Assembly: GCF_003991155.1 (NCBI RefSeq)
Contig: NZ_CP031293.1
Strand: one strand, 5' to 3'
DNA: 64,000 nucleotides
Source: Escherichia coli
GTDB lineage: Bacteria; Pseudomonadota; Gammaproteobacteria; Enterobacterales; Enterobacteriaceae
Shown: positions 54,818 through 58,353 of the stretch, piece by piece
Layout of the letters: every line of letters begins with the position of its first letter
Position numbering within the stretch: the stretch's first letter is position 1
The notes under the pieces: model-generated
Told to the model about the DNA's origin: nothing
What the model saw: the letters and a program-made list of their open reading frames with translations, nothing else
Database searches by the model: none
Made by a program: the position numbers and the translations under genes

Positions 54818-56308
54818 ATGAAATTGCACCATAGAATGCTCCGGCATTTTATCGCCGCAAGTGTCATTGTGCTGACATCTTCCTTCCTTATTTTTGAACT
54901 TGTCGCCAGTGACAGAGCAATGAGTGCCTATCTGCGCTATATCGTGCAGAGAGCAGACTCCTCCTTTCTTTATGATAAGTATCAGAATCAGAGTATTGCC
55001 GCGCATGTGATGCGCGCTCTCGCTGCTGAGCAGTCGGAAGTGTCGCCAGAACAGCGGCGAGCCATCTGCGAGGCTTTTGAGTCTGCCAATAATACCCATG
55101 GCTTAAACCTGACTGCCCATAAATACCCTGGCTTACGCGGCACACTACAAACCGCATCCACTGACTGCGACACAATTGTGGAAGCTGCTGCACTATTACC
55201 CGCTTTTGATCAGGCAGTGGAAGGCAACCGCCACCAGGATGATTACGGTTCAGGTCTTGGGATGGCCGAAGAGAAATTTCACTATTATCTCGATCTCAAT
55301 GACCGCTATGTCTATTTTTATGAGCCGGTTAATGTTGAGTACTTTGCGATGAATAACTGGTCCTTCCTGCAGTCAGGAAGTATTGGCATCGATCGCAAAG
55401 ATATTGAAAAGGTATTTACCGGGCGTACCGTATTATCGAGCATTTACCAGGATCAGCGTACTAAACAGAACGTGATGAGTTTGCTGACGCCGGTATATGT
55501 CGCAGGGCAGCTAAAAGGGATTGTGCTGCTGGATATTAACAAAAACAATCTGCGGAATATCTTTTACACTCATGACCGCCCTCTCCTCTGGCGTTTTCTC
55601 AATGTCACGCTAACTGATACAGATTCGGGGCGCGACATTATCATCAACCAGAGCGAAGATAATCTGTTCCAGTATGTCAGTTACGTCCATGACTTACCGG
55701 GCGGCATTCGTGTCTCGTTATCCATTGATATTCTTTACTTTATCACGTCTTCGTGGAAAAGCGTTCTGTTCTGGATTTTGACGGCGTTAATTTTGCTGAA
55801 TATGGTGCGGATGCACTTCCGTTTATACCAAAATGTGTCGCGAGAAAATATTAGTGATGCGATGACTGGACTGTATAATCGCAAAATTTTAACCCCTGAA
55901 CTGGAGCAGCGGTTGCAGAAACTGGTGCAATCCGGTTCTTCGGTGATGTTTATTGCAATTGACATGGACAAGTTAAAGCAAATAAATGACACCCTTGGTC
56001 ATCAGGAGGGGGATTTAGCGATTACGTTATTAGCTCAGGCGATTAAACAATCGATTCGTAAAAGTGATTATGCCATCCGACTCGGTGGCGATGAATTCTG
56101 CATCATTCTTGTCGATTCGACGCCGCAAATTGCAGCACAACTGCCTGAACGTATCGAAAAACGTCTACAACATATCGCGCCGCAGAAAGAGATCGGCTTC
56201 TCTTCCGGTATTTACGCGATGAAAGAAAACGATACGTTACATGATGCGTATAAAGCTTCCGATGAGCGTTTATATGTCAATAAGCAGAACAAAAACAGCC
56301 GTTCATGA
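54818..56308 (+). CDS. yeaJ: diguanylate cyclase (periplasmic sensor domain plus GGDEF)
   Basis: Start at MKLHHRMLRHFIAASVIVL; canonical RLGGDEF; 496 aa. Confidence 0.85.
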   Translation: MKLHHRMLRHFIAASVIVLTSSFLIFELVASDRAMSAYLRYIVQRADSSFLYDKYQNQSIAAHVMRALAAEQSEVSPEQRRAICEAFESANNTHGLNLTAHKYPGLRGTLQTASTDCDTIVEAAALLPAFDQAVEGNRHQDDYGSGLGMAEEKFHYYLDLNDRYVYFYEPVNVEYFAMNNWSFLQSGSIGIDRKDIEKVFTGRTVLSSIYQDQRTKQNVMSLLTPVYVAGQLKGIVLLDINKNNLRNIFYTHDRPLLWRFLNVTLTDTDSGRDIIINQSEDNLFQYVSYVHDLPGGIRVSLSIDILYFITSSWKSVLFWILTALILLNMVRMHFRLYQNVSRENISDAMTGLYNRKILTPELEQRLQKLVQSGSSVMFIAIDMDKLKQINDTLGHQEGDLAITLLAQAIKQSIRKSDYAIRLGGDEFCIILVDSTPQIAAQLPERIEKRLQHIAPQKEIGFSSGIYAMKENDTLHDAYKASDERLYVNKQNKNSRS

Positions 56309-56350
56309 TAACCTTCTGTGGTTGTTTGCTTGTAATCTCAGGAGCATGAA

Positions 56351-56854
56351 ATGACTGAAATGGCTAAAGGAAGCGTGACGCATCAGCGGTTAATCGCTTT
56401 ATTATCGCAAGAAGGTGCTGACTTCCGCGTCGTTACCCATGAAGCGGTAGGTAAATGTGAAGCGGTGTCAGAAATTCGTGGCACCGCTTTAGGCCAGGGG
56501 GCTAAGGCACTGGTATGTAAAGTCAAAGGCAATGGCGTAAATCAACATGTTCTGGCGATCCTCGCTGCCGATCAACAGGCCGATCTGAGCCAACTCGCCA
56601 GCCATATAGGCGGATTACGCGCTTCGTTGGCCAGTCCGGCGGAAGTCGATGAACTCACAGGCTGTGTCTTCGGCGCGATCCCCCCTTTCAGCTTCCATCC
56701 AAAACTCAAACTGGTTGCCGACCCCCTACTCTTCGAACGATTTGATGAAATCGCCTTCAATGCAGGCATGCTGGATAAATCCGTTATTTTGAAAACCGCG
56801 GATTATTTGCGCATTGCGCAACCAGAACTGGTCAATTTCCGCCGCACTGCGTAA
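56351..56854 (+). CDS. yeaK: YbaK/ProX-type aminoacyl-tRNA deacylase-domain protein
   Basis: 167-aa ORF. Confidence 0.8.
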   Translation: MTEMAKGSVTHQRLIALLSQEGADFRVVTHEAVGKCEAVSEIRGTALGQGAKALVCKVKGNGVNQHVLAILAADQQADLSQLASHIGGLRASLASPAEVDELTGCVFGAIPPFSFHPKLKLVADPLLFERFDEIAFNAGMLDKSVILKTADYLRIAQPELVNFRRTA

Positions 56855-56959
56855 CTAGCCTGTCCGTTCGATAAGAAGAACGGACAAAACCAGCACAACA
56901 GCAATGGCAAAAAACGATGACGTGATAATCAGTGTCTCGACGAACATTTGATCGTTCAT
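56855..56959 (-). CDS. yoaI: small hydrophobic protein (34 aa) [34 protein letters not shown]
   Basis: Not in the ORF track (under 60 aa); single predicted TM helix; matches the small protein I remember as yoaI. Confidence 0.6.
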
Positions 56960-57128
56960 AGTATGCCCCCGGGAGATAGCTGTTTTCACGTTATTGTTAG
57001 CGTGCGCAAATGGCAGTTTGATGACAGTTCGCCTGATTTTTTATGCAAAAAACGTAAAGATTTTCTACTTCCTTCCTGCAGCAAGCGTAAAGTAAGCAGG
57101 CTTATTATTTTTTGGCAAGGAAACCACG

Positions 57129-57575
57129 ATGTTTGATGTCACTTTGCTGATCCTGCTCGGGTTAGCTGCGCTGGGCTTTATCAGTCATAACACCACTGTC
57201 GCCGTTTCAATTCTGGTGTTGATTATTGTCCGCGTCACACCGTTAAGCACCTTTTTTCCGTGGATTGAAAAACAGGGGCTAAGTATCGGGATAATCATTC
57301 TGACGATTGGTGTTATGGCCCCCATCGCCAGCGGGACGCTACCGCCCTCAACCCTGATTCACTCGTTTCTGAACTGGAAATCGCTGGTGGCAATTGCAGT
57401 CGGCGTTATTGTCTCCTGGCTGGGAGGGCGCGGCGTGACGTTAATGGGCAGCCAGCCGCAACTGGTCGCCGGGTTGCTGGTGGGCACTGTTTTAGGCGTG
57501 GCGCTGTTTCGCGGCGTACCGGTTGGCCCGCTTATTGCCGCGGGTCTGGTTTCGCTGATTGTGGGGAAACAGTAG
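57129..57575 (+). CDS. yeaL: UPF0756/DUF441 inner membrane protein
   Basis: 148-aa hydrophobic ORF. Confidence 0.8.
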
Positions 57576-58353
57576 TTAATCCCGCAATATATCGGCCTGG
57601 CGTTTGCCCCAGGCCTTTCTTAAACATAGTAATAAAGGCCGTTGTTGAATCATACCCCAGCGTATGAGCAACTTTCTGTACAGTATCGCCTTTCACTAAT
57701 CCCTGAAGCGCCATAATCAGCTGTAACTGCTGACGCCACTGGCGAAAACTCAAGCCCGTCTCTTTCACTATCAGCCGGGCAAGATTGCGTTCACTCATCG
57801 CAAAAAAGCCAGCCCATTGCCCCAATGAGCCCCACTCGACGGGCTCTTTCGCCATCATCTCCACCATCGCGCGGATTTTAGGATGAGAAGAAACGGGTAG
57901 GTGCAGCTGTTGTTGTGGCTGCTGAGGGAGTTCATCAAACAGGACCTGAATTAATCTGCGGGTCATCGGCTCAGCACGCTGAGTCGTCGTCCTGTTTGCC
58001 AGGGTTAAAATTAATTCCCGGCATAAGGGCGATATTTTCAATGTGCAACAGGTTGTCGGCATTGTCACTGCGCTGGGTTCGATAAACAGAAAACAGAGTT
58101 CAGCGTTAGCTGTCACTTGATTGCTATGTTCCACCCCTCCCGGTATCCAAACCGCATATTGTGGCGGCACCATCCACAAAGCATTTTCCACCGTACAGGT
58201 AATTGCACCATGTAGCGCCAGTATCAGCTGTCCTTTGCGGTGCTGATGTACAGGACTGGTTAACTCATCCGTTCCGGCGTGAATACAAAATGCGACCGCG
58301 GCTTCATGGTGTCGGTCGGGTTCATAGCCATTGAGATTCAACCTGTGCATCAT
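57532..58353 (-). CDS. yeaM: AraC-family transcriptional regulator (cupin plus HTH)
   Basis: 273-aa ORF; 3' end overlaps yeaL 3' end. Confidence 0.8.

Follow-up and report, generated by a model that had tools for sequence, protein, structure and literature searches.

A stem-loop in the last codons of yoaI, at its junction with the convergent gene yeaK, as a candidate 3'-end structure in Escherichia

The minus-strand open reading frame (ORF) at positions 56855..56959 of the 64-kb stretch of Escherichia coli DNA analyzed here (the window) is the known small-protein gene yoaI, and the last codons of this gene contain a perfect inverted repeat that starts 6 nt past the stop codon of the convergent neighbor, yeaK. 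The explanation that we favor for the site as a whole, with moderate confidence, combines the known gene with a hairpin that would act as the 3'-end stem-loop of overlapping convergent transcripts; taken separately, the chances that the hairpin has any selected role at the RNA level are evenly balanced. Publications already cover the gene, the fact that it is translated, its control by PhoB and the action of its product on EnvZ, and nothing is added here at that level; the sole undescribed detail is the Escherichia-specific hairpin within the yoaI coding sequence, together with its putative function. The accessible literature dealing with yoaI mentions neither the hairpin nor the zero-gap junction with yeaK.

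The identity of the ORF as yoaI and the known function of its protein can jointly be regarded as practically certain. The frame runs from an ATG at 56959 to a TAG at 56857..56855 (34 codons plus the stop), and the list of open reading frames, the sequence itself and the RefSeq annotation place it at exactly the same coordinates. The preliminary description of this DNA had named the gene yoaI, a name borne out both by RefSeq and by the NCBIfam equivalog model NF041475 (“small membrane protein YoaI”), which matches the protein over residues 1-34 of 34 with 79.8 bits (E = 1.1e-22), the curated cut-off being 45 bits. A search against a local copy of Pfam gave no match for YoaI; PF23689 is precomputed on database homologues that bear the name YoaI. 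In K-12, the counterpart is b1788 (1874078..1874182, minus strand), whose translation gives the same 34 residues, a protein identical to WP_000999630.1. The window thus encodes the same protein as the described YoaI, with the same PhoB box and in the same neighborhood (dgcJ-yeaK / yoaI / yeaL-nimR), and differs from K-12 yoaI at the DNA level only, with ACA instead of ACC at T33. A 901-nt query taken around the site finds a match in 5411 of 5426 complete E. coli genomes, and the RefSeq gene set at the locus in these 5411 genomes consists of dgcJ, yeaK, yoaI and yeaL; two of the approximately 5414 E. coli matches to the yoaI locus fall on records labelled as plasmids.

Homologues were searched for with a 44-codon, GTG-extended version of the ORF, and a scan of one genome per species yielded 27 yoaI loci, the genera recovered being Escherichia, Citrobacter, Enterobacter and Lelliottia only. 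Across the 27 loci from these four genera, the yoaI frame is intact, at 32-35 codons, and the dN/dS of the loci relative to the window sequence lies between 0.07 and 0.36. The extended, 44-codon form with its GTG start was rejected as the coding sequence: the extension is confined to Escherichia, in-frame stops breaking it elsewhere, and yoaI therefore starts at the ATG. Synteny is largely kept, with yeaK as the convergent downstream neighbor in 25 of the 27 loci and a divergent yeaL on the upstream side in 22.

YoaI is a 34-residue single-pass inner-membrane protein that stimulates EnvZ-OmpR signaling and needs Glu31 of its short cytoplasmic tail to do so. In the work of Vellappan et al. (10.1101/2024.09.13.612970; Sci Signal 2025, according to PMC12648545), a Ribo-RET peak is found at the yoaI start codon, YoaI-SPA is detected by western blot in membrane fractions, and a two-hybrid assay reports an interaction between YoaI and EnvZ. 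With omrB, ompC and ompF reporters, YoaI was seen to activate omrB and ompC in an EnvZ-dependent manner, an effect abolished by the substitutions E31A and E31Q (10.1101/2024.09.13.612970). These published experiments agree with everything visible in the sequence. They also settle most of what had been said of the ORF beforehand: the call of a small membrane protein was correct, as the membrane fractions show, and so was the guess of a regulatory role, given the binding and activation of EnvZ (10.1101/2024.09.13.612970). Ribosome profiling and epitope tagging, proposed in the preliminary description as checks, are already in print and both show translation (10.1101/2024.09.13.612970); as to the two findings that it said would speak against the gene, namely the lack of a translation signal and the lack of a conserved reading frame, the Ribo-RET signal is clearly there and the frame is clearly kept.

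The same study reports S26, V27 and E31 as invariant among 57 YoaI orthologues (10.1101/2024.09.13.612970). All three residues are present in the YoaI of the window; in our alignment of YoaI proteins, S26 and E31 are invariant and V27 is replaced by I in one Enterobacter sequence, and one Lelliottia locus encodes D at position 31. YoaI has been reviewed within the class of small membrane-protein modulators of kinases (PMC12648545). Like MgrB (acting on PhoQ), SafA (PhoQ), MzrA (EnvZ) and PmrR, it is a short single-pass inner-membrane modulator of a kinase, induced by one two-component system and acting on the kinase of another; however, it has no sequence relation to these proteins, and it is an activator that works via a glutamate of its cytoplasmic tail.

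Expression of yoaI is driven by PhoB from a Pho-box promoter approximately 67 nt upstream of the gene, with translation starting from the ATG at 56959. The PhoB box TGTCATCAAACTGCCATT (57009..57026, minus strand) is an exact match to the site that Fitzgerald et al. 2023 give for yoaI/yeaL on the basis of ChIP-seq (PMC10294691), and a Pho-box-like TGTCA-N6-TGNCA is found 60-74 nt upstream of yoaI in 26 of 28 loci. Nine nucleotides downstream of the box, a -10-like TAACAAT (56993..56999, minus strand), conserved across the Escherichia loci, is a probable promoter element. When the sequence was scanned for consensus promoters, none of the sigma-70 type was called at yoaI, which is to be expected since the promoter is PhoB-dependent and without a -35 element. 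Closer to the gene, a Shine-Dalgarno-like GGGGG (56966..56970, minus strand) lies 6 nt ahead of the ATG, and a run of GGGG or GAGG occupies the same distance from the ATG in all orthologous loci. The strength of the regulation is apparent from RNA-seq, where yoaI reaches approximately 12,000 normalised reads in the wild type versus approximately 28 in a phoB deletion, a dependence on PhoB of approximately 440-fold (PMC10294691). Transcription of yoaI was likewise found to be PhoB-dependent by Vellappan et al., who in addition describe a PhoQ-independent, post-transcriptional rise in YoaI at low Mg2+ (10.1101/2024.09.13.612970).

The hairpin is formed by two arms, TGTCCGTTC at 56861-56869 and GAACGGACA at 56878-56886, set 8 nt apart, which pair perfectly over 9 bp around an 8-nt loop; the whole inverted repeat falls within codons 25-33 of yoaI. 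The preliminary description had already seen it within the coding sequence, at 56861..56885; the hairpin is real and so placed, and only its end has to be moved by one base, to 56886. Read in the yoaI sense, the stem is (T)TG TCC GTT C ... GAA CGG ACA, the 5' arm coding for L25-S26-V27 and the first base of L28, and the 3' arm for E31-R32-T33. Folding models predict a stable RNA stem-loop: as plus-strand RNA, the hairpin folds with −15.2 kcal/mol (z = −5.2; none of 200 shuffles reached this value), and in yoaI-sense RNA only, G-U pairs lengthen it to a predicted helix at 56854..56894 (minus strand) that includes the UAG stop codon (−21.3 kcal/mol, z = −6.0). When the whole predicted yoaI mRNA is folded, the 3' hairpin behaves as an independent domain; no significant sequestration of the ribosome-binding site or long-range pairing was found in this mRNA, the 5' part of which has z = −0.5. 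An Rfam search of 56000-57600 gave no match on the hairpin at E ≤ 1. The same family collection gives a JUMPstart match inside yeaL, at 57335-57364 on the minus strand, which is most likely due to chance (21.5 bits versus a gathering threshold of 35, E = 0.086).

An inverted repeat with 9-N8-9 spacing is also a perfect palindrome at the level of the DNA, and this is the sole argument for viewing it as a site for a dimeric DNA-binding protein, a function that we consider extremely unlikely. We know of no recognised operator consensus that the palindrome resembles. The sequence is single-copy in E. coli genomes and, being located where both genes end, is a long way from the promoter of either; the PhoB binding described by Fitzgerald et al. 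is at the promoter instead (PMC10294691).

Taken alone, one hairpin of this type could have arisen by chance, although most of the real ones are non-random: the 64-kb window contains approximately 13 distinct stems that are perfect over 9 bp or more and have loops of 3-10 nt, versus approximately 2.5 in dinucleotide shuffles. This raises the question as to whether the hairpin is a functionless by-product of the protein that it encodes, given that the codons for the conserved residues S26-V27 and E31-R32 (TCC GTT C and GAA CGG A) are near-complementary and that E. coli is young and little diverged. This, the main rival reading, we hold to be possible, if somewhat doubtful. The 2.5 or so hairpins of this kind that chance alone would leave in 64 kb are in its favor, as is the fact that the hairpin was noticed before being tested. 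Synonymous resampling with the peptide fixed, based on the codon usage of the window itself and post hoc, the hairpin having been noticed first, bears on the question in two ways. The most frequent outcome is 4-5 pairs, so that about half of the nine pairs arise anyway once the protein is given; however, all nine Watson-Crick pairs are obtained at a frequency of only 2e-4, and at least eight of the nine at 6e-3, which speaks against a by-product. The stem moreover requires the uncommon Arg codon CGG (89 of the 716 Arg codons in the long ORFs of the window), and the use of this codon counts on the same side.

Variation within E. coli can be compared with this expectation. Approximately 95% of the 5411 genomes carry one of three alleles that leave a stem of 8 bp or more intact: the commonest, found in exactly the same form in 3402 genomes, keeps the 9-bp stem and departs from the window sequence at two bases of the loop (CTG at L28 and ATT at I30); the K-12 allele (1142 genomes) has an 8-bp stem instead of 9 bp, owing to its ACC at T33; and the allele of the window is present in approximately 500-630 genomes. 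The common polymorphisms of the species fall on the two loop positions and on the terminal pair, and the 8-bp core has none. Counted by hand, three of four synonymous sites outside the core are polymorphic versus none of six to seven within it (Fisher p of approximately 0.03), in a test that is post hoc and relies on few sites. The avoidance of the stem core by polymorphisms is suggestive and, as far as it goes, is at odds with a by-product. In one strain, E. coli A30 (NZ_CP092500.1), the hairpin itself is interrupted by an IS903-like element (locus 498-1583), for which the annotation gives an IS5-family transposase. The element has GGCTTTGTTGAATAAATC as its terminal repeat and is apparently flanked by a 9-bp duplication of its target, CCGTTCTGC; the insertion truncates YoaI to MNDQ...SVLRLC (31 aa) and parts yoaI from yeaK.

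Beyond E. coli, the record of the hairpin is mixed. Perfect stems of 8-9 bp are retained in E. albertii and in Escherichia sp. MOD1, and the perfect 8-bp stem of E. albertii persists despite a dS of 0.53 to the window, which is not what would be expected of a by-product. In E. whittamii and Escherichia sp. E1V33, on the other hand, the stem carries one or two non-pairing substitutions, located at synonymous sites, and outside Escherichia the hairpin is absent, both of which a by-product would readily explain. Across 26 orthologues, 60.9% of cells pair versus 58.7% in shuffles and there is no meaningful covariation; a structure conserved across orthologues was thus rejected, and the missing covariation again sides with a by-product. 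As judged from the loci compared, the hairpin is specific to Escherichia and, even there, is not strictly maintained.

Two divergent genomes labelled E. coli, E69 and SCPM-O-B-8794, keep the pairing through U-G wobbles only. The hairpin then survives in yoaI-sense RNA alone, with −14.0 and −13.4 kcal/mol, respectively, versus −6.0 and −4.1 kcal/mol in yeaK-sense RNA. Together with the longer helix of the yoaI-sense strand and its inclusion of the stop codon, this pattern could be taken to indicate a cis element of the yoaI mRNA that affects its stability or translation and is perhaps involved in the low-Mg2+ rise in YoaI, since Vellappan et al. report a post-transcriptional induction (10.1101/2024.09.13.612970). 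The published signal is, however, a higher ribosome density at the start codon, in the 5' part of the mRNA with its unexceptional z value, and the hairpin folds as a domain separate from it. Moreover, no mutation is commoner in general than C-to-T, and two other lineages carry changes that do not pair; a cis element of this kind is, in our estimation, very improbable. Given the design of SPA-tag cassettes, the YoaI-SPA allele in which the Mg2+ response was seen presumably has yeaK set apart from the hairpin by the inserted tag and marker, and this speaks against the native junction being needed for the response.

The junction itself bears on the 3'-end stem-loop that we favor. yeaK (56351..56854, plus strand), which encodes a mischarged aminoacyl-tRNA deacylase, ends with a TAA at 56852..56854, and the TAG of yoaI begins at 56855 with zero bases between them; the adjoining stops had been correctly noted in the preliminary description. 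The two stops adjoin in this way (gap of 0) in every Escherichia locus; the distance between them is 1-9 nt in Citrobacter and 20-30 nt in Enterobacter/Lelliottia. A canonical intrinsic terminator overlapping the stop codon of yoaI is present on the yeaK-sense strand in at least 9 of 15 Enterobacter/Lelliottia-type loci, at −6..+14 as counted from the end of this stop (approximately 1599-1620 in locus coordinates). It has the form GGCUGAC-loop-GUCAGCC, its 3' arm being the complement of the Gly34 codon and the TGA stop of yoaI, and is followed by UUUUCUUUCC, a U-tract that is the complement of yoaI codons 30-33 or thereabouts. The ends of yeaK are homologous, reading GCG TAA in both Escherichia and Enterobacter/Lelliottia, and Escherichia is without the spacer of 20-21 nt in which the 5' arm and the loop of the terminator are located. 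From this comparison of sequences, we infer that the change went in the direction of Escherichia losing the spacer and the terminator. The hairpin of Escherichia occupies exactly the position of the terminator hairpin of its relatives, a coincidence that weighs against a by-product, and it would in part stand in for the canonical terminator of yeaK found at the same junction in Enterobacter/Lelliottia.

In comparison with the orthologous junctions of Enterobacter/Lelliottia, the hairpin of Escherichia lacks a U-tract. The stem is followed by AAAACCAG on the plus strand and by GGCUAGUUAC on the minus strand, neither of which is a U-tract, and an intrinsic terminator was rejected on this ground. 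A bidirectional terminator was rejected as well, the A and U runs being on the wrong sides of the stem: an A-run follows the hairpin on the plus strand and a U-run precedes it on the minus strand, which is the opposite of the layout of known bidirectional terminators. No terminator was called in any Escherichia locus by either a tool scan or our own scan, and a hairpin followed by a U-tract, in either direction, is absent from every Escherichia and Citrobacter locus examined. Citrobacter sp. Awk 4 has, at yoaI codons 29-33 (locus approximately 1584-1597), an unrelated 5-bp hairpin, CTCCT-CGAA-AGGAG, which is part of a more extensive helix predicted at −14 to −17 kcal/mol; the occurrence of an unrelated hairpin at the same codons is a further point against a mere by-product.

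Transcripts of the two genes appear to overlap. Using RNA-seq coverage, ExcludonFinder places yeaK-yoaI among 165 convergent overlapping pairs in MG1655 (PMC12288877). On the yeaK strand, Adams et al. 2021 (PMC7815308, Supplementary file 2) list a Rho termination region at K-12 position 1874225 (Rho score 2.8, p = 1e-5), which a gap-free comparison of the window with K-12 converts to 57002 on the plus strand; it is labelled “antisense yoaI”, and its position is approximate, as 800-nt windows were used. The region lies approximately 115 nt beyond the hairpin, inside the yoaI promoter. As it is the only mapped plus-strand feature, transcripts of the yeaK strand appear to pass the hairpin and all of yoaI until they are stopped by Rho. 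Among the curated Term-seq 3' ends of the same study, which covered three conditions, none falls within K-12 1873900-1874299 (PMC7815308); this is weak negative evidence, the expression of yeaK and yoaI being low in these conditions; TERMITe likewise has no entry for a 3' end at the hairpin. The lack of both a mapped 3' end and a U-tract is in keeping with a by-product. The idea, put forward in the preliminary description, of a region that may also serve as a yeaK 3' structure is plausible and goes no further than that: the placement of the hairpin and the terminator of the relatives speak for it, the missing U-tract and the missing curated 3' end against it.

As a 3'-end stem-loop, the hairpin would serve one or both of the convergent mRNAs. 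It may act as a barrier to 3'-5' exonucleases once transcription has passed; alternatively or in addition, it may be a point at which polymerases pause or collide, hairpins with pausing and collision-positioning roles having been studied by Wang et al. (10.1101/2022.10.23.513370). Protective stem-loops with no U-tract behind them are an established class, found on Rho-terminated transcripts of E. coli (PMC6061677). The yoaI hairpin shares several properties with the stem-loops of Dar and Sorek 2018 (PMC6061677): it is stable by prediction, is located just past a stop codon (that of yeaK, 6 nt away), has no uridines after it and is followed further downstream, on the same strand, by a Rho termination region. 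It differs from them in having no mapped steady-state 3' end in the data of Adams et al. 2021, in having no C-rich, rut-like tract immediately downstream and in being inside the coding sequence of a convergent gene. A C-rich, G-poor rut tract was sought downstream of the stem on both strands and none was convincing, the C/G ratio being 0.64-1.1. With the terminators of convergent genes and with excludons, the site has in common a hairpin at the boundary of a pair whose transcripts appear to overlap.

Published data for phosphate limitation bear on possible consequences of the overlap for expression. There, yeaK RNA amounts to 389/413 in the wild type versus 709/655 in the phoB deletion (log2 −0.8, q = 0.0115; PMC10294691 Table S1), that is, yeaK is approximately 1.7-fold lower in the wild type under phosphate limitation, where yoaI is induced approximately 440-fold (PMC10294691). 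This drop fits with interference by the induced convergent transcription of yoaI and could also be indirect. A bolder reading is that of a working excludon, in which repression between yeaK and yoaI would be mutual, the stabilities of both mRNAs would be governed by the stem-loop, the hairpin in the coding sequence would have replaced the ancestral intergenic terminator, and the PhoQ-independent, post-transcriptional control by low Mg2+ would possibly be exerted here; we deem it improbable as a whole. If it were true, the read-through of yeaK would be antisense across the whole of yoaI up to the Rho site in its promoter, and the ancestral terminator would have been deleted when the two stop codons became adjacent.

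Irrespective of its role, the hairpin shares its nucleotides with residues reported to be invariant or essential, as its arms encode S26, V27 and E31. Mutating the codons of these residues also alters what is predicted to be a stable RNA structure, as well as the 3' flank of yeaK; the substitutions E31A and E31Q alter the first or second base of GAA, at the foot of the 3' arm. A second convergent pair lies close by: yeaL (57129..57575, plus strand) and nimR (57532..58353, minus strand) overlap by 44 nt within their coding sequences (57532-57575) and are also listed by ExcludonFinder as a convergent excludon.
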